Shown: positions 36,876 to 47,225 of the stretch, in pieces
Layout of the letters: every line of letters begins with the position of its first letter
Position numbering within the stretch: the first letter of the stretch is position 1
Assembly (NCBI GenBank): GCA_964615335.1
Contig: CAZTMT010000005.1
Coordinates: 107,104 to 171,103 of the forward strand
Direction of reading: 5' to 3'
Source of the DNA: an uncultured Clostridia bacterium
GTDB taxonomy: Bacteria > Acidobacteriota > Blastocatellia > HR10
Length of the DNA stretch: 64,000 nt
Notes under the pieces: model-generated
Told to the model about the DNA's origin: nothing
Seen by the model: the letters and a program-made list of their open reading frames with translations, nothing else
Databases searched by the model: none
Position numbers and translations under genes: made by a program

Positions 36876-39800
36876 TCAAAAGGCGAGTCGGAGGCGGAAC
36901 TGGACCTGCCGAGGCAGCGTCATCGTGCTTGTCGTCCGACCAAAATTGGTCGCCGTGATACTGATCGGAGTGACGGCGAATGTTCCTCCTGTGGGGACTT
37001 CGAAGACCGGATGATTGAAGGCGTTGACCATCTCCGCGCGAAACTCCATGCGCACCCTCTCTCCGGCGATCGGGATCTGCTTGGCCAGCGAGAGATCGGC
37101 CGTCGCAAACCGCGGCCCATACAGGTAGATGAAGCTTCCGAACTGCCCCGGCGTCGTGGGAGGAGATAGGAAGCTGGGATTAGCCCGTCCGTCGCTTCCC
37201 ACCAGCCGCGGATGGAGGAAGAAAACATCCGGACGGCCGGACGGCTTGAATACCCCTACCAGCTTCTGCAAGTCGGCCGTCGTCACCCCGTTGAGGATCA
37301 CGCCAGCGTCCGATTGATTGACCGTCGCCCGACCGCTGGAGAGCTTGAAGGGAAGACCGGATTGCACGCGGATGATCCATCCCACTGTCCAACCGCCCGC
37401 GATGCTGTTGAGGACCGGATGCGTGGTCGAAAATCGGCGCCCGGGGCCAAACGGCACGTCATAGGTGCCGAACACCTGAAAGACATGCCGGATGTCGAAG
37501 GGCGAAGGCCCATAATCCAGCCGCCGATTCCGCAGCGTCGTGAAGTCGCTCAGATTATCCACGTTCTTGGTATAGCGGTCGGTCAAGGCATGAGCCCACG
37601 TGTAGTTCACATTCAGCGTCAATCCGCGCGAGAGTCGGTGGCGGAACTCGATCTGAAGGGCATTGTAGTTCGAGAAGGAGTTGTCGCTGAGCACTCGAGC
37701 CGTACCCAAGAAAGGGTTGAGCCTGAAGAAATTGATCGGATACCGTCCGGGCGTCTGAAAGCCCAAATTGGCGCACGGCCCAAAGGCATTGCCCACCAGA
37801 CGGCAGAAGTAGATCGGGGTCGAAGCGAGAATATTCGCTAAAGCCCCTGCTTGCCCTGTCTGAAGCAGCGTGATGAAGCTCCCATTGCTGAATCCCTGTC
37901 CGGCCGGCAGGCCCGCGAACGCCGTCTCGAAGATCGGGATCGCCGCTTGTCCTGGTAATCCGTTATTGAGGAAAGTAGGTCCCCGCCCCTGAGCGAGGTT
38001 GACTTCGAGGTTCTTCTGGGCCTGAAGGAACTCGCGCAGGAAGCCGTTCTCGAAGATGTTCACCTCGTTGACGTTGAACGTATGCCACAGCCGCACGCCC
38101 CGATTGCCGACGTATCGCACCTCGATCGCCGTGCTTGTGGTCAGCTCCCGTTGAAGCCCCAAAGACCAGCTCTGTACATAGGGCGCGCGGATGTCCGGAT
38201 CTATTGTGGAGATGACCGTGTTGGTGAAGGTGAAATTCGCCAGCGCCAGAGGAAAACTGAAGCTCGCCGGAAACATCCGGAAGGGCGGCAACGGATCGCC
38301 CAGATGGAGCGAGCCCGGAGCGAAATCCACACCGGGCACCAGCGTGCCCGATTGGCGCAAGCCGGGATTATTGCCCGCGTTGTTGGTGAAATTGAGCAAG
38401 CCTTCGGAGTAATAGCTGATGGAGTAGCCGCCCCGAATGACCGTCTTCTGATCTCCCAGCACTCGTCCCAGGAAACCTTGCGAGAACTTCGGATTCCACG
38501 CGATTCCCACATGAGGGGCCGGATTGATGTAATCGCGCCGATAGGCATGCGAGCGTTGATAGATGGCTGGATGGGCGATGCCCAGCAGGGAGCCCGGAGC
38601 GAAGAGGTTCGGAGCCAGGCCGGAAGATCCTCGCGCGACGCCCGAAGGTCCAAACAGGTCCAGAAGCGTCGGACTGGTGTAGATGCCGTTTGTGTTGAAG
38701 ATGTCTCCTTGAAAGTCCCATCGCAGGCCGTAGTTGAGGGTCAGCGAGCGGTGGACGCGCCAGGAGTCCTGGAAGTAAAAACCGAAGAGAGTTTGTCGTT
38801 CCCGCAGGACGACGGGCGCATCTTCCACATACTGCCGCGTCTTCTCATCCACGTTGACGGACTTGGTCACGCTGGAGACGCGACCCACAAGCAGGGCGTA
38901 GAGCGCCAAGGCATCGTTGCGCGCGTCATTGGGGATGGAAGGAAGAGTGGTGCTGTTGAAGATGGCATTCACCGGATCATCGCTCACCACTCCGAACGTG
39001 AAGCGCGGGATACCGGCATCGCCGAGCGTGCTCTGGTACATGTCGATGCGAATATAGTTTCCTCCGAAGCTGAACGAGTGGGTGCCCCGCTGGTAGTGAA
39101 AGTTGTTGACCAGGTTGTAGACCGGATTGTTGCGCGGTTGAAAGGTGATCCCAAAGCCCAGGCCATTGACCGCCTCCAGCCCGCTCGCCAAACCCAGGGG
39201 GAAGTTCATGAGCCAGGGCTTGAAGAGGTCGCGGTTGTAGCCGATGTTGAAGATCTCTTGATTGCTCTGGATGCCGAAGTTGAACTCGTTGATCATGTTC
39301 GGTCGCAGAGTCCAGGTCGCGCTGATATTGGCGATATAGGGATTGGAGATCTGCCCGACCGATTGTTCCTGCGCGAAGATACCGGGCAGGACCGTTCCCC
39401 GAAATCCCCGTGCGTTCACATTATGATTGTAGGTATCCGAGACGCTGATGCGGAGCTTCTCGGTCACCTGGTAGTCGATCCGCAGCGTGGGATAGTGGTT
39501 GGTCACGGGAGAGGGGGCCACCCACCGGAGGCGATTCCGAATCAGATCGAATGGCGAGAGCGCCCCGGCCGATGTGGCTGATTGAATCTTCTGAAGTTGC
39601 GCGGCGATCGTCGGATTGACGCGGCTCGGGAAGCCGTGTTGTCCGGCGATTTGCAGCAGGTTCACCGTGCGCGTCACCCCATCGGTTCCGACATAGGTGA
39701 ACAAGCCGGTCTGAGCCGCGGGCGTCAAAACTCGCGCTTCGAACTCCGACGACTGAGGCGTGTTCACATACGCGTAGCTGGCGAACAGGAACAGGCGGTC

Positions 39801-40700
39801 CTTGATCAAAGGCCCGCCGAGACTGCCGCCCTGATCGTTGCGGATGAAAATGGGGCGCCGGATCCTGCGAGCGTTATTGAACCAGCTATTGGCGTTAAGT
39901 GCCGAGTTCTCATGTTGCCAGAACAGCTCGCCGTGCCAGGCGTTGGTTCCCGATCGGGTGACGAACTGAATCTGCATGGCCCCTTGCCCGGTGCTGTTGG
40001 CGCCCAGATTGGACGTCGCCACGGTCACTTCCTGCACGGCCTCCAGACGGGGTACGACGAAAGCGAAGAAGCTCGTGCCGCCACTTTTGAATCGCTGGGC
40101 GTTGTTCGCAATCCCGTTGAGCGTGATGTTGAGCGCCGCACCCGGTAACCCGTTAATCGTGCTGTCGCGCGCCGTTACGCCTTGCTGCGCCCCCGCCATG
40201 AGCAGGGCGAAGGGCAGAGTGCTCCGACCCGGCAGCGGCAGATCCTGGAGATATTTCTGGTCCACCGTGTCGGAGATCGTGGAGGTCGTCGTGTGCAGCA
40301 CGGCCGCGCCGCCGACAACCTCAACGGTTTCAGAGACAGCGCCCACCTTCAGGGTGATCGTGACGTTGGTGGTGCGCGCCGCATTGACGACAATGCCTGT
40401 ATAAACCGCTGTCTCAAAACCAGACATCGTGGCTTTCAAGCTGTAGGTCCCGGGCGGGAGCGTCGGGAAAACAAATCCCCCCTCGGCATTGGAAAAGGTC
40501 GTCTGTGTGGCTTTCGTGTCCAGGTTCTGCAGCTCCACCCTGACGCCGGGAATGACGGCGCCAGCTGGGTCCTGCACCGTGCCGACGATCTGCCCTGTCG
40601 TCACCACTTGACCGAAGGCCACCCTGCTGAAAGCCCAGAGGGTCACAAGAAGCCACGTCGTGAGGGAAAGGCATGGGCCTCTTCGTCTTCTGGTCCGCAT
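36876..40700 (-). CDS. TonB-dependent receptor with N-terminal carboxypeptidase-regulatory-like domain
   Basis: Signal peptide. CarboxypepD_reg motif (GQIVGTVQDPAGAVIPGVRVEL...TNAEGGFVFPTLPPGTYSL). Plug and 22-strand barrel region. C-terminus ...FRLRLAF ends in Phe. RBS AAGGAGGAG. Confidence 0.9.
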   Translation of the reverse strand: MRTRRRRGPCLSLTTWLLVTLWAFSRVAFGQVVTTGQIVGTVQDPAGAVIPGVRVELQNLDTKATQTTFSNAEGGFVFPTLPPGTYSLKATMSGFETAVYTGIVVNAARTTNVTITLKVGAVSETVEVVGGAAVLHTTTSTISDTVDQKYLQDLPLPGRSTLPFALLMAGAQQGVTARDSTINGLPGAALNITLNGIANNAQRFKSGGTSFFAFVVPRLEAVQEVTVATSNLGANSTGQGAMQIQFVTRSGTNAWHGELFWQHENSALNANSWFNNARRIRRPIFIRNDQGGSLGGPLIKDRLFLFASYAYVNTPQSSEFEARVLTPAAQTGLFTYVGTDGVTRTVNLLQIAGQHGFPSRVNPTIAAQLQKIQSATSAGALSPFDLIRNRLRWVAPSPVTNHYPTLRIDYQVTEKLRISVSDTYNHNVNARGFRGTVLPGIFAQEQSVGQISNPYIANISATWTLRPNMINEFNFGIQSNQEIFNIGYNRDLFKPWLMNFPLGLASGLEAVNGLGFGITFQPRNNPVYNLVNNFHYQRGTHSFSFGGNYIRIDMYQSTLGDAGIPRFTFGVVSDDPVNAIFNSTTLPSIPNDARNDALALYALLVGRVSSVTKSVNVDEKTRQYVEDAPVVLRERQTLFGFYFQDSWRVHRSLTLNYGLRWDFQGDIFNTNGIYTSPTLLDLFGPSGVARGSSGLAPNLFAPGSLLGIAHPAIYQRSHAYRRDYINPAPHVGIAWNPKFSQGFLGRVLGDQKTVIRGGYSISYYSEGLLNFTNNAGNNPGLRQSGTLVPGVDFAPGSLHLGDPLPPFRMFPASFSFPLALANFTFTNTVISTIDPDIRAPYVQSWSLGLQRELTTSTAIEVRYVGNRGVRLWHTFNVNEVNIFENGFLREFLQAQKNLEVNLAQGRGPTFLNNGLPGQAAIPIFETAFAGLPAGQGFSNGSFITLLQTGQAGALANILASTPIYFCRLVGNAFGPCANLGFQTPGRYPINFFRLNPFLGTARVLSDNSFSNYNALQIEFRHRLSRGLTLNVNYTWAHALTDRYTKNVDNLSDFTTLRNRRLDYGPSPFDIRHVFQVFGTYDVPFGPGRRFSTTHPVLNSIAGGWTVGWIIRVQSGLPFKLSSGRATVNQSDAGVILNGVTTADLQKLVGVFKPSGRPDVFFLHPRLVGSDGRANPSFLSPPTTPGQFGSFIYLYGPRFATADLSLAKQIPIAGERVRMEFRAEMVNAFNHPVFEVPTGGTFAVTPISITATNFGRTTSTMTLPRQVQFRLRLAF

Positions 40701-40911
40701 CGTTTTCTCCTCCTTTCTTTCCGATCTTTCCGACCCCGCCACACTTCGGCCACAGTGTACAGGCGGTCTCCACCCGTTGTCTTGAACAATCCAAGTCCTT
40801 TTGGAACAGACTTAATGTCTTCTGAAACCAGCTCGCGAGTGCCCGGGTCGCGTCCGAACGGAAGGCCCAAGGGGAACGAACCCCTGTGCCGAAAGTTTTT
40901 ATATATTTTCG

Positions 40912-40941
40912 TTGACAAAGTCGCCTAACTTCGGCTATCCT
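40912..40941 (+). promoter_or_regulatory. Sigma70-type promoter (TTGACA-N18-TATCCT) for the reductase operon, giving a ~290-nt leader
   Basis: Lies in an AT-rich island (gaaagtttttatatattttcgTTGACAaag...) within otherwise GC-rich DNA. Confidence 0.5.
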
Positions 40942-40979
40942 CATACCGCTCGAGCGCACGGGATGGGAGGACTCAGACG

Positions 40980-41126
40980 ATGGCCTACGAAGGACGAAGC
41001 GACAGGCGGGCGGCGCTCGACAGAACGAACGCGCGTCGCCTGAAGAGCATCGCGGTCCTCTTCGTGCGAGGACCGTGGACATCCGAGCAGGGGAGCGCCC
41101 TGGCCGACGACGTCTGTTGTCGCTGA
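40980..41126 (+). CDS. Upstream ORF (48 aa) ending ...DDVCCR*, in the leader of the first reductase gene
   Basis: ATG at 40980 lies 9 nt after GGGAGG. Two consecutive Cys codons (TGT TGT) precede Arg-stop. Duplicated TTCCCCCCGA motifs follow at about 41150 and 41191. Confidence 0.35.
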   Translation: MAYEGRSDRRAALDRTNARRLKSIAVLFVRGPWTSEQGSALADDVCCR

Positions 41127-41234
41127 GTCTGCTGACGCCTTCCGACGATTCCCCCCGAATTGGGATTTGCTCTCAGGGAACCTTCCTTCCCCCCGAGGGG
41201 AGCGGAGGCGAATGATCATTTCTCGGGAGAGGGC

Positions 41235-42941
41235 ATGGGAGATCAACTCACGAGGGAAAAGAAGGAGAAGGAATCGAAGGCCGCGCGGATCGAACGGTTG
41301 AAGGCGGAGAAGAATCCGTGGGAGCATTTGGAGGAGATCCTCCGGTTCGCCCAAGAAGGACATGAGGCGATCCCGCGCGAATGGCTGGAGACATATTTTC
41401 GGTGGTGGGGAGTTTACACGCAGGGGGATGGGCGCGGCGTCTTCGGGCAGGCGACGCCGCATTTCATGCTGCGGATTCGCATCCCGAATGGCCTTCTTCT
41501 GGCGCATCAGCTTCGCACGATCGCCGATCTGGCCGAGCGGTACGCACGGGGTTTTGGCGACATCACGGTGCGTCAGAATATCCAACTGCACTGGGTGCGG
41601 ATCGAGGACATGCCGGATATTCTCTTCCGCCTCTTTCGCGTCGGATTGACGACGATGGGGGCCTGCGGCGATGACACGCGCAATATCACGGGGTGTCCCC
41701 TGGCGGGCGTGGATCGAGACGAGATTTGCGATGCCTCGCCCCTTGTTGTGCAGGCGACGCGTATGCTCGTCGGAGATGAGGCCTTTTACAATCTGCCGCG
41801 CAAGTTCAAGATCTGCATCACGGGGTGTCGCGTCTGGTGCTCCTATCCGGAGATCAACGACATCGGTCTGACGGCCATCGAGCGCGTGCGCGCCACTGGA
41901 GAGCGCGAGATCGGATTCTCGGTGCGCGTGGGAGGAGGGCTTTCGACAGCGCCCCATTTCGCCGTTCGCCTGAACGCCTTCGTCCGATGGTCGCAAGTCC
42001 TGCCGGTCATTCGCGGGATCGCCGAGATCTTTCGCGACAGCGACGTCCTGCGTCGGGATCGGGCGAAAGCGCGGTTGAAGTTTCTCTTCCTGGAGCACGG
42101 GTGGACGGCCGAGCGGTTTCAACAGGAGCTGGAGCAGCGCATCGGCTTTCGGCTCGATCCGGCGGTGGAGGAAGAGCCGCCGGATCATCCCTATCGAGAT
42201 CATGTGGGAATTCATCCGCAGAAGCAAGAGGGGTACTACTACGCGGGATTCGCCATCTTGCGGGGACGGATCACGGCGGAGCAGATGCGCCGCGCCGCCG
42301 ATCTGGCCGAGCGCTATGGGGACGGACAGCTCCGCACGACGAACATGCAGAATCTCATCGTGCTCAACATCCCGCAGGCACGGCTCGGGGCGTTCGTTCG
42401 AGAGGTCGAGGAGACGGATTTGCGCCTGGAGGCCTCCCCGTTCTGGCGCGGAGCGATCGCCTGCACGGGGACGGAGTTTTGCAAGTTGGCCATCGCGGAG
42501 ACCAAGAGCTTCGCGCGCTGGCTCGTCGAGGAGTTGGAGCGTCGCGTTCCCGAATTCGACGAGCCGATCAAGATCAACGTCAACGGGTGTCCGAATTCCT
42601 GCGGGCAGCACTGGATCGCGGACATCGGATTGCAGGGGTGCAAGATGAAGGTCGGAGGCGAGCAGGTGGATGCCTTCGACGTCTTGCTCGGGGGAGCTAT
42701 TGGCCGGGGGGCGACGTTCACTCGCCGCGTGGGATTCAAGGCTCCGGCGCGAGAGATCCCCGATGTCCTGGAACGCTTGCTTCGAGCGTATCTGGCCTGT
42801 CGGAGGCCGGGAGAGCGCTTCCATGAGTTCTGCCGCCGTCAGAGCGAGGCCGAGTTGCGCGCCCTGCTCGCCGGAGAGGTCGTGGAGGCTGCCGAAGCGC
42901 CCCCCTGGCCGGGTCCGCCTCCGCATGGCGTGGAGGGGTAA
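41235..42941 (+). CDS. Ferredoxin-dependent assimilatory sulfite/nitrite reductase (NirA/Sir family), paralog 1
   Basis: Two nitrite/sulfite-reductase ferredoxin-like half-domains. Siroheme/[4Fe-4S] Cys cluster motifs (TGCP...C; NGCPNSCGQHWIADIG). 568 aa from the ATG at 41235. Confidence 0.9.
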   Translation: MGDQLTREKKEKESKAARIERLKAEKNPWEHLEEILRFAQEGHEAIPREWLETYFRWWGVYTQGDGRGVFGQATPHFMLRIRIPNGLLLAHQLRTIADLAERYARGFGDITVRQNIQLHWVRIEDMPDILFRLFRVGLTTMGACGDDTRNITGCPLAGVDRDEICDASPLVVQATRMLVGDEAFYNLPRKFKICITGCRVWCSYPEINDIGLTAIERVRATGEREIGFSVRVGGGLSTAPHFAVRLNAFVRWSQVLPVIRGIAEIFRDSDVLRRDRAKARLKFLFLEHGWTAERFQQELEQRIGFRLDPAVEEEPPDHPYRDHVGIHPQKQEGYYYAGFAILRGRITAEQMRRAADLAERYGDGQLRTTNMQNLIVLNIPQARLGAFVREVEETDLRLEASPFWRGAIACTGTEFCKLAIAETKSFARWLVEELERRVPEFDEPIKINVNGCPNSCGQHWIADIGLQGCKMKVGGEQVDAFDVLLGGAIGRGATFTRRVGFKAPAREIPDVLERLLRAYLACRRPGERFHEFCRRQSEAELRALLAGEVVEAAEAPPWPGPPPHGVEG

Positions 42942-42942
42942 G

Positions 42943-43062
42943 ATGATTCCGACACTGTTCATCGAAGGGATCGCCGAAGGCCTCGTGCCCGAGGGAGCGA
43001 TCTGTTCGTGTATGTGTGCCAGCAGGCCGAGAGCGGGCCCTCCGCAGCGCTCTCCCGGATGA
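42943..43062 (+). CDS. Candidate leader peptide (39 aa) with C-S-C-M-C codon cluster
   Basis: ATG lies 2 nt after the paralog-1 stop and is preceded by GGAGGGG. Sequence is MIPTLFIEGIAEGLVPEGAICSCMCASRPRAGPPQRSPG*, with three Cys codons in five (43003-43017). It is followed by alternative hairpins and a terminator. Confidence 0.4.
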   Translation: MIPTLFIEGIAEGLVPEGAICSCMCASRPRAGPPQRSPG

Positions 43063-43087
43063 GCGCGGTGGACGGCAGAAGAAAGCG

Positions 43088-43124
43088 AGGCCCGCTCTCG
43101 GAGATTCCGAGGCGGGCCTTTTTG
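43088..43124 (+). terminator. Intrinsic terminator/attenuator between the two reductase genes
   Basis: Stem AGGCCCGCTCTCGG-agatt-CCGAGGCGGGCCT (13 bp, one bulge) followed by TTTTT. The 5' arm (43089-43101) is also perfectly complementary to 43027-43039 inside the leader ORF, giving an antiterminator alternative. Confidence 0.6.
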
Positions 43125-43146
43125 ATTCCGGATGGGAGGGGAAGCC

Positions 43147-44943
43147 ATGGGAGAAAAGGAACGTTTTGCTGAGCTGGAGCCACTTCTGGTCGGGCTGCCT
43201 CCGGAGGTGCAAGCCGAGATCCGTCGCTTCGCCGAAGAGATCGAGGCGTTTGAAGCCGGAGAGCGCGATCCGGAGGACTTCAAAAGGTTTCGTCTGGAGA
43301 ATGGCGTTTATGGGATTCGCGGAGCGCCGGAATGGCACATGGTGCGGGTGAAGGTGCGACTGGGACGCATCACGCCGGAGCAATTGGAGGCTTTGGCCGA
43401 TCTGGCGGACCGCTTCACGCCGAATCGGCGCGTGCATCTCACGACGCGGCAAGACATTCAATTTCACCGGGTGCGGCGCGAGGATGTTCCCCTTCTGCTC
43501 GCGCACATCGCGCGAGTGGGCCTGACGACGCGCGAGGCGTGCGGCAACACGGTGCGCAACGTCACGGCCTGTCCGCTGGCCGGCATCTCGCCGACCGAAG
43601 CCTTCGACGTGACGCCTTATGCCGATGCCGTCTCGCGCTACTTTCTGCGTCATCCGATCGCGCAGAACCTGCCGCGGAAATTTAAGATCGCCCTCGAGGG
43701 ATGCCGCCAGGATCACGCGCGCGTGAGGATCCACGACATCGGAGCGGTCGCCCTGGTGCGCGAGCGCGAGGGGGCGAAGGAGCGAGGCTTTCGCCTCTAC
43801 ATCGCCGGGGGATTGGGCGCGCAGCCGCGCGCGGCAGAGTTGTTGGAAGAGTTCACGCCGGCCGATCTGCTGATCCCCACCTGCGAAGCCATCCTCCGCG
43901 TCTTCGATCGGCATGGGGAGCGACGGCCCGAGCATACGTTCCGCATGCGCGCGCGGATGAAATTCCTGGCCCGACAGTGGGGGATCGAAAAGCTCCGCGA
44001 GGCGATCTTCGCTGAGCGTCGTGTGCTTCTGGCCACGCGTTCGGGTCTGGTCCGGTATGAAATCGCAGAGGAGCAAGAGGAGGAGCCTCCGGTCCTCGAA
44101 CTCCCGAGAGGGGGAGCGGCCGGCTGGTCATCGTCGCCCGACTACCAGCGGTGGCGGCAAGCGAACGTCCTGGCGCAGAAGCAGCCGGGCTACTACGCCG
44201 TCACCGTGCGCTGCGCGCTGGGGGATGTGACCAGCGACGCATTGCGTCATATCGCGCGCATTGCGCGCCGTTTCTGTGGCGGGCGCCTTCGGACGACGAT
44301 CGCGCAGAATTTTCTTCTCCGATGGGTCCCGGAAGCAGCCCTGCCCTACGTGTATCGCGAGCTGGCGGCCATAGGACTGGCCGAAGCCGATCAGCTTGCG
44401 GATATCACCCGCTGTCCGGGTGCCGATACGTGTCAACTGGCTCTCACGCGCTCGCGGGGTTTGGCCGAAGCGCTTCGTCAGGTATTGCGGAGCGACGGGT
44501 TCGGGGACATCCCGGAGCTTCAGGATCTCACCATTAAGATCTCCGGCTGCATGAATTCCTGCGGGCAGCATCACATCGCCGACCTCGGTTTCTATGGGGC
44601 GTCGAGCGGCGTGGATGGGCACGCGCTGCCCCAGTACGTTTTGCTCGTCGGAGGAGGCACAGGGTTTGAACGCGTCACATTCGGGCGGGCCCTTGCGCGC
44701 GTTCCGGCGCAGTGGGCTCCCGAGGCGGCCCGGCGCCTGCTCATGTTCTATCGGGAACAGCGATACGCGGGCGAATCCTTCCGGGAGTTCGTCGAGCGCG
44801 TCGGTGCCCCACGTCTTCGAGAGGTGCTCGCGCCCTTTGAACGCGTGCCTTCGTTTGAAGAAGCGCCCGAGCTGTATCGCGATCTCGGAGCCGAGGAGGA
44901 GGTCTTTCGCCCCGAGATCGGTCCGGGCGAGTGCGCCGCATGA
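43147..44943 (+). CDS. sir: Ferredoxin-dependent sulfite reductase (NirA/Sir family), paralog 2
   Basis: Same domain architecture as paralog 1 (ACGNTVRNVTACPLAG; GCMNSCGQHHIADLG). Adjacent to siroheme synthesis and cysH genes. RBS GGGAGGGG. Confidence 0.9.
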   Translation: MGEKERFAELEPLLVGLPPEVQAEIRRFAEEIEAFEAGERDPEDFKRFRLENGVYGIRGAPEWHMVRVKVRLGRITPEQLEALADLADRFTPNRRVHLTTRQDIQFHRVRREDVPLLLAHIARVGLTTREACGNTVRNVTACPLAGISPTEAFDVTPYADAVSRYFLRHPIAQNLPRKFKIALEGCRQDHARVRIHDIGAVALVREREGAKERGFRLYIAGGLGAQPRAAELLEEFTPADLLIPTCEAILRVFDRHGERRPEHTFRMRARMKFLARQWGIEKLREAIFAERRVLLATRSGLVRYEIAEEQEEEPPVLELPRGGAAGWSSSPDYQRWRQANVLAQKQPGYYAVTVRCALGDVTSDALRHIARIARRFCGGRLRTTIAQNFLLRWVPEAALPYVYRELAAIGLAEADQLADITRCPGADTCQLALTRSRGLAEALRQVLRSDGFGDIPELQDLTIKISGCMNSCGQHHIADLGFYGASSGVDGHALPQYVLLVGGGTGFERVTFGRALARVPAQWAPEAARRLLMFYREQRYAGESFREFVERVGAPRLREVLAPFERVPSFEEAPELYRDLGAEEEVFRPEIGPGECAA

Positions 44944-44954
44944 GGGAGGACGTT

Positions 44955-45782
44955 ATGAGTGAACGGCATCGGTTGGGGAAAGTCTATCTGGTCGGCGCGG
45001 GGCCGGGCGATCCGGGCCTTCTCACCGTGCGCGGCCTGGAGGTGCTCAGCACGTGCGATGTCGTCATCTACGACGCGCTCGTCAATGCGCGTCTGCTGAA
45101 CTACGCTCCTCCGGAAGCCGAGCGTCTCCCGGTTGGCCCTGCGCATGGCGCGCATCGCCTGACACAGGAGGAAATCCATCGGATCATGATCGAGCGCGCG
45201 CGGCGCGGTCTGATCGTCGTGCGCCTGAAGGGGGGAGATCCGTTCATCTTCGGGCGCGGGGGGGAGGAAGCGCTGGCCCTTCGCGAGGCGGGCATCCCGT
45301 GGGAGGTCATTCCCGGCGTCTCAGCCGGACAGGCCGTGGCCGCTTATGCGGGAATTCCGCTCACCCATCGCGGCCTCTCCTCCAGCGTCGCCTTCGTGAC
45401 AGGTCACGAGTGCGCCGACAAAACAACGCAGGTGAACTGGGAAGCGCTCGCCCGGGCCGTGGACACGCTGGTCGTCTTCATGGGCGCGCGGACCCTTCCG
45501 CAGATCGTCGCGCGGTTGCTCGAAGCCGGGCGTGCGCCCGAGACGCCCATCGCCGTCATCGAGTGGGGAACGTATCCGTATCAGCGCGTGCGCGTGGCGA
45601 CGCTGGCTACGATCTGCGAACGCACGGCCTGTGATCCCGTGTGCGCGCCGGCCTTGATCGTCATCGGGGAAGTCGTCGCGCTGCGGGAGGCGCTGGCCTG
45701 GTTTCCGACCGAGGAGGTTACAGCTTCTGTTCCAGAGCCGGAGGCTCTAGCGCTTCTCCTCAGCGAGGAGGTGGAGAGATGA
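44955..45782 (+). CDS. cobA: Uroporphyrinogen-III C-methyltransferase (SUMT)
   Basis: VYLVGAGPGDPGLLTVRG...VVRLKGGDPFIFGRGGEE is the class III SAM methyltransferase signature of CobA/CysG-C. Confidence 0.92.
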   Translation: MSERHRLGKVYLVGAGPGDPGLLTVRGLEVLSTCDVVIYDALVNARLLNYAPPEAERLPVGPAHGAHRLTQEEIHRIMIERARRGLIVVRLKGGDPFIFGRGGEEALALREAGIPWEVIPGVSAGQAVAAYAGIPLTHRGLSSSVAFVTGHECADKTTQVNWEALARAVDTLVVFMGARTLPQIVARLLEAGRAPETPIAVIEWGTYPYQRVRVATLATICERTACDPVCAPALIVIGEVVALREALAWFPTEEVTASVPEPEALALLLSEEVER

Positions 45783-46453
45783 GGTATTATCCGGCTTTTC
45801 TCGATCTGCGCGAGCGCGAGGTTCTGGTCGTCGGGGGAGGGAAGGTCGCCGAGCGCAAGGTGAAGACGCTGCTTGAAGTCGGAGCGCGCGTGCGCGTGGT
45901 CAGCCTCGATCTCACCCCCGCGCTCGCCGAGATGGCCGCTCTGGGCCAGATCGCTTATCGCGCGGGCGAGTTCGAAGACGCGGATCTGGAGGGCGTCTGG
46001 CTCGTCATCGGGGCGACGAACGATCCCCGGGCGAATCAACGCGTGGCCGAAGCGGCCGCCCGACATCGTCTCTTCTGCAACATCGTGGACGTTCCCGCGC
46101 TTTGTTCGTTTCTGGTCCCGGCTCTTATCGAGCGAGGGGATGTTTTGATCGCGATCTCCACGAGCGGGCAGAGTCCGGCCCTCGCGCAACGACTCAAGCG
46201 CGAGATCGAAATGATGATCGGTCCGGAGTATGGGCGGTTGGCGGAGCTGCTCGGGCGCCTGCGCGCATTCGTGAAGCAGAAGATTCCGGACGCCGAGCGA
46301 CGAGCTGACATATTCCATCGGCTCGTCCAGTCCGATCTCCCGGAGCGGCTTCGCGCCGAAAACCCCTCCAATGTGGAGCGCCATGCGCGCCAGCTCATCG
46401 AGCGCTGGATCGAAGAGGAATCTCATCAGAAGGAGGTGAACGAGTATGAGTGA
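45779..46453 (+). CDS. sirC: Precorrin-2 dehydrogenase / sirohydrochlorin ferrochelatase (SirC/CysG N-terminal domain-like)
   Basis: Rossmann motif VLVVGGGKVAERK. ATG overlaps the cobA stop (ATGA). Confidence 0.8.
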   Translation: MRYYPAFLDLREREVLVVGGGKVAERKVKTLLEVGARVRVVSLDLTPALAEMAALGQIAYRAGEFEDADLEGVWLVIGATNDPRANQRVAEAAARHRLFCNIVDVPALCSFLVPALIERGDVLIAISTSGQSPALAQRLKREIEMMIGPEYGRLAELLGRLRAFVKQKIPDAERRADIFHRLVQSDLPERLRAENPSNVERHARQLIERWIEEESHQKEVNEYE

Positions 46454-47225
46454 CGCCGTGTTTCAGGCAGAAGAGATTCGACATCTCAACGAGGAGTTCG
46501 AGAAGCGACCGCCTCAGGCGGTGCTCCAATGGGCTCTGGAGCGCTTTCATCCGCGGATCGCTCTGGCCTCAAGTTTCGGAGCGGAAGACGTTGTCCTCAT
46601 TGATATGCTCTGGCGGATGAATCCGCAAGCTCGCGTCTTCACGCTCGATACGTGGCGTTTGCCGACGGAGACCTACGAGGTCATAGATCGTATCCGCGAG
46701 CGCTATGGGATCGAGGTGGAGATCTACACGCCGGATCCCGAGGAGGTCACCGAGATGGTGCGCGCGCACGGGTACAACCTGATGTATCGCTCGATCGAGC
46801 TGCGCAAGCTCTGTTGCCACGTGCGGAAAGTGAAGCCTCTGGAGCGGGCGCTTGCGGGGCTGGATGCCTGGATCACGGGCTTGCGTCGCGAGCAGGCCGT
46901 GACGCGCGCGCACGTGACGAAGATCGAATGGGATGCGCAGCATGGGGGGCGTATGAAGGTGAATCCTCTGGCCGATTGGTCGTGGGATCAGGTCTGGGAG
47001 TACATTCGCCGACACAAGGTGCCGTACAATGCGCTGCACGATCGCGGATACCCCTCCATTGGATGCGCTCCGTGCACGCGAGCCGTTCGACCGGGCGAGG
47101 ATCCGCGCGCCGGACGATGGTGGTGGGAGCAAAATCCCGCCCTTCAGGAATGCGGGTTGCACGTCACTCCGGATCCGGCGCGCGTGGGAGTCGTTCTCCC
47201 GGAGACGCCTTCAGGACGCGGGTGA
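46446..47225 (+). CDS. cysH: Adenylylsulfate (APS)/PAPS reductase, thioredoxin-dependent, with Fe-S Cys motifs
   Basis: PP-loop (ASSFGAEDVVLIDM). Cys pairs CC...CxxC (LCCHVRK, GCAPCT) are typical of Fe-S APS reductases. C-terminal ECGLH catalytic Cys. Confidence 0.9.
   Translation: MSDAVFQAEEIRHLNEEFEKRPPQAVLQWALERFHPRIALASSFGAEDVVLIDMLWRMNPQARVFTLDTWRLPTETYEVIDRIRERYGIEVEIYTPDPEEVTEMVRAHGYNLMYRSIELRKLCCHVRKVKPLERALAGLDAWITGLRREQAVTRAHVTKIEWDAQHGGRMKVNPLADWSWDQVWEYIRRHKVPYNALHDRGYPSIGCAPCTRAVRPGEDPRAGRWWWEQNPALQECGLHVTPDPARVGVVLPETPSGRG

Follow-up and report, generated by a model that had tools for sequence, protein, structure and literature searches.

What controls sir1, the first gene of a sulfate-assimilation operon that is preceded by a long leader carrying a short upstream open reading frame (uORF)? 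The operon lies in a window of 64,000 nt of contig CAZTMT010000005.1 (GCA_964615335.1), within which all coordinates are counted, and its genes are arranged in the order sir1, sir2, cobA, sirohaem synthase and phosphoadenosine phosphosulfate (PAPS) reductase. The leader thus precedes cysteine-synthesis genes, where an attenuator would be expected, and is situated in a 490-nt gap between the operon and a gene for an outer-membrane beta-barrel protein. An earlier, sequence-only reading had listed a promoter, a Shine-Dalgarno (SD) sequence with a 48-codon uORF and two C-rich copies as parts of this leader, and all of them were found upstream of sir1 (Table 1). The sir1 gene is present as well, with its ATG at 41235 rather than 41236. 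We propose, at a probability of about 0.4, that the uORF encodes a cis-acting leader peptide whose conserved C-terminus may pause the ribosome at the end of the uORF and thereby control sir1.

The uORF is shared by all close relatives from which DNA could be recovered. Scans of genome and metagenome contigs with the protein as guide gave no sir1 homologue above 69% identity; the DNA of closer relatives, eight further lineages, was reached through members of the sir1 90%-identity cluster (54 members, among which the names 'bacterium HR10' and 'Blastocatellia bacterium' occur) and exact-protein look-ups. The nearest of them, L177, has a sir1 98% identical to that of the window. An ORF of 47-49 codons is present at the same place in all recovered relatives, in most of which it had already been called by gene callers, and all nine lineages with DNA retain the promoter, the SD, the start and the ORF. 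A GGGAGG or GGAGG is located 5-9 nt upstream of the conserved start codon in 10/10 lineages. Every uORF copy examined lies directly upstream of sir1, while the gene beyond it varies, being an opposite-strand outer-membrane protein in the window and L177 and a same-strand protein of ~880 residues elsewhere. The sequence-only reading had held the uORF to be real and had suggested a comparison of the leader; SD, start, frame and C-terminus are kept in every relative recovered, and translation is very likely.

Beyond these relatives the peptide appears to be confined to a narrow group. A word-indexed profile search of 5.8 billion proteins identified 12 uORF peptide clusters, all in this clade, and an exhaustive hidden Markov model (HMM) search of 1.84 billion representatives gave no credible homologue outside it. 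Two extra HMM matches were dismissed, P0147 as a tandem-repeat artefact and P0148 as a borderline repeat protein. The peptide has no match in Pfam, and the family has no Rfam entry and no description in the literature searched. On the sequences compared, promoter, uORF and spacer form a leader module that is restricted to one clade of thermophilic (hot-spring) Blastocatellia-type Acidobacteria.

The two parts of the uORF evolve in different ways. Its last 19 codons follow the consensus R-x-P-W-(A/T)-S-E-x-(G/A)-(S/N)-A-(L/F)-A-D-D-(V/I)-C-(R/C)-R-UGA, in which P, W, S, E, A, A, D, D, C, R and the UGA stop are invariant. The ratio of non-synonymous to synonymous divergence (pN/pS) is 0.23 across these codons and 0.91 across the 11 codons before them, with nearly the same synonymous divergence in both (pS 0.44 versus 0.42) and a four-fold lower non-synonymous one in the former. 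Of the variable columns in the last 20 codons, 6, 5 and 14 lie at codon positions 1, 2 and 3, respectively, and six different codons (ACA, ACC, ACT, GCA, GCC and GCG) are used at one conserved Ala/Thr position. Mean identity across the clade is ~89% for sir1, 81% for the C-terminus of the uORF and 34% for its N-terminus, whose ~28 codons are near-neutral yet stay open, with a length change of only one in-frame codon. The last 19 residues and the UGA are under purifying selection at the amino-acid level; because synonymous divergence is equal in both parts, it is the peptide that is constrained, rather than an RNA or DNA element overlapping it. The peptide was also considered as an Arg sensor and rejected, its Arg-richness being, in our judgement, expected of GC-rich near-neutral sequence.

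The promoter in front of the uORF is the sole sigma-70-like match within 40500-43400. Its block ACATTTTCGTTGACAAAGTCG is essentially invariant across all related lineages, TTGACAAAGTCG is invariant, and so is the core ACATTTTCG beside the -35 hexamer among the relatives, the window's own version being ATATTTTCG; the -10 hexamer is TATACT in the eight lineages outside the pair of the window and L177, and TATCCT in the window. The block is retained even where the gene further upstream differs. This conservation in all relatives supports the long leader that the sequence-only reading had drawn from the promoter, with transcription very probably starting near 40948, ~7 nt past the conserved -10, and a leader of about 287 nt. 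An exact 19-mer of the block occurs once in the window, and with no second copy there at up to three mismatches, the block was rejected as the operator of a regulon. In most relatives the 5' untranslated region (for instance L182:3960-3990 and L161:3722-3755) carries a short hairpin, CCCGAC-loop-GUCGGG, that overlaps the uORF SD (GUCGGGAGG); the window differs at this site and has the palindrome GCUCGAGC at 40948-40955.

We favour a cis-acting leader peptide on the ground that the uORF looks like a translated leader ORF whose constraint is limited to the stop and the ~19 residues before it, as in cis-acting nascent peptides. Two properties expected of an arrest peptide are found here, C-terminal purifying selection with a free N-terminus and a cis position with its own start signals. 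The peptide would act in cis inside the ribosome exit tunnel, and the nascent chain may slow or arrest translation either at the invariant UGU or, three codons further on, at the stop. How long the ribosome dwells there would then decide whether the C-rich, fast-evolving spacer behind the uORF is exposed. An exposed spacer would lead to premature, probably Rho-dependent, termination or to RNA refolding, and a covered spacer would allow sir1 to be expressed. Two signals are conceivable, the supply of Cys-tRNA at the UGU, with the peptide sharpening the read-out, and a sulfur metabolite that the nascent chain would sense; an Arg>Cys change in the window and L177, which gives UGU-UGU, would strengthen the Cys-tRNA read-out. 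A more specific version, in which PW-SE--SALADDVCRR-UGA is a new metabolite-sensing arrest peptide that responds to cysteine, sulfite or sulfide and gates sir1 independently of the Cys-tRNA attenuator further downstream (see below), seems unlikely to us.

TnaC, SpeFL and the fungal arginine attenuator peptide (AAP) are among the sensory peptides with a conserved C-terminus that stall the ribosome at the stop or close to it. In the tna operon the TnaC mechanism is Rho-dependent, with a Rho utilization (rut) site behind tnaC. The uORF resembles these systems as a short leader ORF of a metabolic operon in which the last ~20 residues are constrained and the N-terminus is free; its UGA is invariant, and a region richer in C than in G follows right after the stop, as the rut site does behind tnaC. 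It differs from them in showing no sequence similarity and in its 48 codons, longer than TnaC (24) and SpeFL (34). For the uORF, stalling, a ligand and Rho dependence are putative. In leader ORFs of the MgtL/MgtP type, translation speed controls Rho-dependent termination or RNA structure, and alternative stem-loops are conserved. The uORF is like these in having few sensor codons in a short leader ORF and a long stretch of leader between that ORF and the structural gene, and unlike them in that its spacer is conserved neither in sequence nor in predicted structure. For sulfite reduction we know of no arrest-peptide sensor.

The spacer between uORF and sir1 measures 66-108 nt across lineages, between which it is unalignable, and the sir1 SD is itself not conserved among them. 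A single property is common to all these spacers, an excess of C over G: the ratio of C to G is 1.27-2.67 in the first 40 nt past the uORF stop in 10/10 lineages, on a strand that is otherwise G-rich. The duplicated C-rich motif of the sequence-only reading is present in the window, at 41149 and 41187: TTCCCCCCGA occurs exactly twice in the 64 kb, and at least two copies anywhere were obtained in only 2/100 shuffles. The pair is kept only in L177, where the second copy is one C shorter, and is unalignable elsewhere. The strongest predicted partner of the sir1 SD is GCUCUC at 41170-41174 (p 0.4-0.65), ahead of the second C-rich copy (p 0.23-0.36) and the first (p <=0.07). Sequestration of the SD by the C tracts, as the sequence-only reading had envisaged, would thus be a minor conformer at best. 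Two minor features were observed in the spacer. Compared with L177:4155-4160, the window is longer by 12 bases (about GCCTTCCGACGA) at 41134-41146, behind the uORF stop and between short GACG repeats; this resembles a slippage indel in a spacer that evolves fast. A direct repeat AGGGGAGCG occurs at 41089-41097 in the uORF (codons Q-G-S-A), where its nucleotides are not conserved in relatives, and at 41196-41204, directly after the second C-rich copy.

Several observations weigh against a cis-acting leader peptide. The C/G bias is modest, the value of the window being at the 91st percentile of 60-mers. The predicted unpaired probability of the sir1 SD hardly responds to a ribosome on the uORF, being 0.34 for the free leader; masking the end of the uORF lowers it only to 0.33, and masking all of it to 0.31. 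A duplex between the 3' end of the uORF and the ribosome-binding site (RBS) of sir1, plausible by eye in L164, L178 and L182, was rejected, as RNAduplex gave z -1.6 to +1.0 relative to shuffles; in silico, the duplex is not better than shuffled controls, and sequestration of the RBS by the uORF end is not found. The uORF 3' end together with the spacer folds with z between +1.2 and -2.1 in nine lineages and is not consistently structured. Stalling, the involvement of Rho and a regulated structure are parts that we infer. Statistical power is limited because the clade is shallow (sir1 ~89% identical). Finally, a conserved C-terminus with a free N-terminus also fits a small trans-acting protein.

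This last point leads to the alternative that survives best, which we hold to be doubtful: the uORF would be the first gene of the operon and encode a trans-acting protein of 47-49 residues, for example an accessory, assembly or regulatory partner of the sulfite reductase that works through its conserved last 19 residues and single Cys, with no role in cis. The SD and ATG of its own, the selection at the peptide level and the strict synteny with sir1 are all consistent with this, as are the two helices of the AlphaFold2 (AF2) model. Other lineages, Methylomirabilota and Rokubacteria as well as L001 and L002, have a different small Cys ORF at this place (66-69 residues, CxxC...CxxC). The confidence of the AF2 fold is low (predicted local distance difference test 60, predicted template modelling score 0.24), however, and more than half of the protein would be near-neutral (pN/pS 0.91); both count mildly against it. 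Its very narrow distribution contrasts with the ubiquity of sir1 orthologues, and the fast-evolving, C-rich gap of 66-108 nt before sir1 is unlike the tight spacing of the genes downstream of sir1.

The sequence-only reading had itself favoured a Cys-codon attenuator, in which scarcity of Cys-tRNA would stall the ribosome at tandem Cys codons and rearrange C-rich tracts that sequester the SD, or a terminator. We regard this as quite improbable. Its gene context is that of cysteine biosynthesis, the Cys at position -3 is invariant, and the codon is always TGT, although TGC outnumbers TGT by 28 to 12 in the six genes of the window. A pair of adjacent TGT codons is found in the window and L177, and two suffice in mycobacterial leaders (10.1101/834739); pairing of the second C-rich copy with the SD is present in a minority of the predicted ensemble. 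The tandem-Cys ending is nevertheless confined to the window and L177, where it arose via a CGT>TGT transition. Cys-Arg (TGT CGT/CGC) is found in the other seven lineages and in 10/12 peptide clusters, so that at least two Cys codons are absent from 7/9 lineages and a single one is invariant; the C-rich repeats are likewise conserved only in L177. Because the invariant Cys codon is three codons before the stop, stalled and terminating ribosomes are only ~9 nt apart, and with the Cys codons 1-2 codons from the stop they cover nearly the same RNA; the predicted SD accessibility is insensitive to masking of the uORF end. No hairpin with a U-run follows the uORF in the window or nine relatives, as judged by eye and by a terminator scan that was also empty and that missed the bulged terminator at 43088-43123 as well; this is unlike the organism's own Cys attenuator at 42943-43123. 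No conserved alternative (antiterminator/terminator) pairing was found after the uORF across lineages. A pure codon-counting attenuator, moreover, does not need selection on 19 residues of peptide and would leave it unexplained.

A very improbable reading is that the uORF is incidental and that its 3' half overlaps a conserved element of the RNA or DNA, for example a binding site for a protein or a riboswitch-like structure. In its favour, the hairpin at 41105-41122 appears in the predicted folds of most lineages and is maintained by wobble changes, but its variation comprises only these and one mismatch, without compensatory double changes, so that it is probably incidental to the DDV-C-R-R codons, and the equal synonymous divergence, the six codons at one Ala/Thr position, the fold of the whole leader (z +0.23, with spacer values scattered from +1.2 to -2.1) and Rfam 15, which gave only chance matches in 40000-44000 at E up to 10 and nothing at gathering score in L017, L042, L161 and L164, all speak against a conserved riboswitch-like leader.

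Table 1. Positions of the leader elements, the operon genes and their surroundings within the window
Feature	Position	Strand	Remarks
Outer-membrane beta-barrel gene	36876-40742	-	Divergent from operon; OMP_b-brl_4 and CarboxypepD_reg domains
AT-rich stretch, UP-element-like or operator	40893-40909 (feature to 40911)	+	Adjoins the -35 hexamer on its upstream side
Sigma-70-type promoter	40912-40941	+	TTGACA-18 nt-TATCCT; 10/12 match
uORF SD	40965-40970	+	GGGAGG, 9 nt before ATG 40980
uORF (48 codons)	40980-41126	+	Encodes MAYEGRSDRRAALDRTNARRLKSIAVLFVRGPWTSEQGSALADDVCCR; ends Val-Cys-Cys-Arg-UGA
Conserved C-terminal 19 codons and UGA	41067-41126	+	R-G-P-W-T-S-E-Q-G-S-A-L-A-D-D-V-C-C-R-stop
Small hairpin in uORF 3' end	41105-41122	+	CGACGAC-GUCU-GUUGUCG; predicted in most lineages
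Invariant Cys codon	41115-41117	+	TGT, kept in all lineages
Second Cys codon	41118-41120	+	TGT, specific to window and L177; Arg>Cys change
Spacer, uORF stop to sir1 ATG	41127-41234	+	108 nt; C > G at 5' end
C-rich copies	41149-41158 and 41187-41196	+	TTCCCCCCGA; only two copies in the 64 kb
Spacer hairpin	41180-41207	+	CCUUCCUUCCCC-CCGA-GGGGAGCGGAGG; predicted fold
sir1 SD	41225-41233	+	GGGAGAGGG, just before ATG 41235
sir1	41235-42941	+	Ferredoxin-type assimilatory sulfite reductase; Pfam NIR_SIR and NIR_SIR_ferr
Cys attenuator between sir1 and sir2	42943-43123	+	Classical type by its arrangement; separate from uORF, within operon
Attenuator leader ORF	42943-43062	+	Starts one base past sir1 stop; contains ICSCMCASRPRAG; TGT at 43003, 43009, 43015
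Attenuator segment 2	43027-43039	+	CCGAGAGCGGGCC; pairs with segment 3 (antiterminator)
Attenuator segment 3	43089-43101	+	GGCCCGCTCTCGG; also 5' arm of terminator hairpin (43088-43101)
Attenuator segment 4	43107-43118	+	CCGAGGCGGGCC; terminator 3' arm, then TTTTT at 43119-43123
sir2	43132-44943	+	Follows sir1
Uroporphyrinogen methyltransferase (cobA)	44931-45782	+	Operon member
Sirohaem synthase	45641-46453	+	Operon member
PAPS/adenosine phosphosulfate reductase	46446-47225	+	Operon member

The interval between sir1 and sir2 holds a second leader-ORF element. By its arrangement, 42943-43123 is a classical leader-peptide Cys attenuator that would gate the genes downstream of sir1 separately. 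All relatives have kept its leader ORF, which carries 2-5 Cys codons in them, and the CSCMC peptide that the sequence-only reading had noticed upstream of sir2 is part of this conserved unit of leader peptide, antiterminator and terminator. Across 10 lineages, 95% of the antiterminator cells and 93% of the terminator cells are paired, compared with 34.6-52.3% and 31.5-58.5%, respectively, in slid controls. One position shows a compensatory GC<>UA change, and the spacer of the window folds better than its shuffles (z -2.7). In L167, which is without sir2, the attenuator precedes cobA. The terminator escaped the simple scan because its stem is bulged. The cysteine sensing that the sequence-only reading had assigned to both small ORFs thus fits this downstream element, and the uORF at most in part.

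Cys-codon leaders are also common at sir loci outside the clade. A leader ORF with at least four Cys in eight residues (e.g. MMSFSNLRQMCMCACCCCACVCSGAGRLLT) is present on the sir strand in 126/160 Terriglobia-type acidobacterial sir loci, and in the first 80 loci its end lies 50-130 nt before sir. In the 24 loci examined in full, a 1:2 / 2:3 / 3:4 arrangement of CGCCAGA, TCTGGCG and CCCACCGCCAGA-loop-CTGGCGGTGGG is followed by a T-run. The poly-Cys loci are within L006-L160, for instance L017:4827-4985 and L042:4766-4985, with ..CMCACCCCACVCSGAGRLLT as an example. For these leaders neither an Rfam match at gathering score nor a description in the literature searched was found. The next-closest sir relatives, at 74% identity, are L172, with eight Cys codons at 1826-2070, and L171, with six at 652-885; in both, two tandem terminators with the same arms, AACCCACTATC...GGTAGTGGG-T7, follow the ORF. 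Because of the poly-Cys leaders in 126/160 loci and in L171 and L172, Cys-codon attenuation is held to be the normal control of sir operons in the phylum. By the same sequence features, the clade of the window also has Cys-codon attenuation, but downstream of sir1.

That leader ORFs control amino-acid operons, in Cys-specific cases too, is already known, and the constraint pattern of the uORF differs from that of codon-run attenuators. Candidate Cys leader peptides have reportedly been proposed for actinobacterial cys operons. In Rhodobacterales, the uORFC-8-2 motif is a tandem-Cys uORF with a terminator upstream of cysS (PMC8632094). The uORF at 40980-41126 shares with such classical Cys attenuators a Cys-codon leader ORF before a Cys-related gene, and differs from them in having neither a conserved codon run nor an intrinsic terminator nor an antiterminator alternative; true classical Cys attenuators occur further along this operon (42943-43123) and, in most other Acidobacteria, ahead of sir. 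In mycobacteria, polycysteine leaderless short ORFs are located upstream of cysteine and sulfur assimilation genes (Canestrari et al., 10.1101/834739). Pausing at their Cys codons is proposed to relieve downstream repression without a terminator, and two consecutive Cys codons are enough (10.1101/834739). Like these ORFs, the uORF lies upstream of sulfur genes and has two consecutive Cys codons in the window. Unlike them, it is SD-led, has a single Cys in 7/9 lineages, and no uORF-controlled RBS duplex was found for it; its surrounding peptide is conserved, something not stated for the mycobacterial ORFs (10.1101/834739).

If the C-terminal peptide of the uORF does program pausing, it would be an addition to the short list of TnaC, SpeFL, SecM-type peptides and the fungal AAP, and the first described nascent-peptide sensor for sulfur assimilation; it comes from the Acidobacteria, a phylum in which hardly any attenuators have an assigned function (PMC2965389). 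One transcript carries two different leader-ORF devices, the uORF before sir1 and the classical Cys attenuator between sir1 and the remaining genes, and sir1 may therefore answer to a different signal than the rest of the pathway. The comparison of loci also shows poly-Cys leader-peptide attenuators as the usual control of sulfite-reductase operons across Terriglobia-type Acidobacteria.

Two further observations concern the wider sir family, whose sir1 homologues carry the source name 'sulfite reductase (ferredoxin)'. In Methylomirabilota/Rokubacteria-type loci (also L010, L026 and L065) and in the two closest genome matches, L001 (4675-4996) and L002 (3321-3648), the ORF upstream of sir encodes the conserved 66-69-residue CxxC...CxxC protein mentioned above, which is zinc-ribbon-like; in L001 and L002 a GC-rich hairpin and a U-run come after it, immediately ahead of the sir SD. 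The uORF was rejected as a homologue of this CxxC ORF of L001, L002 and Rokubacteria, as tblastn against the window gave no match. Among the sir1 homologues of 67-69% identity, P0040, P0052, P0058, P0060, P0067, P0076 and P0117 are 915-964 residues long and are fused to PUA_2 and ATP-sulfurylase domains.

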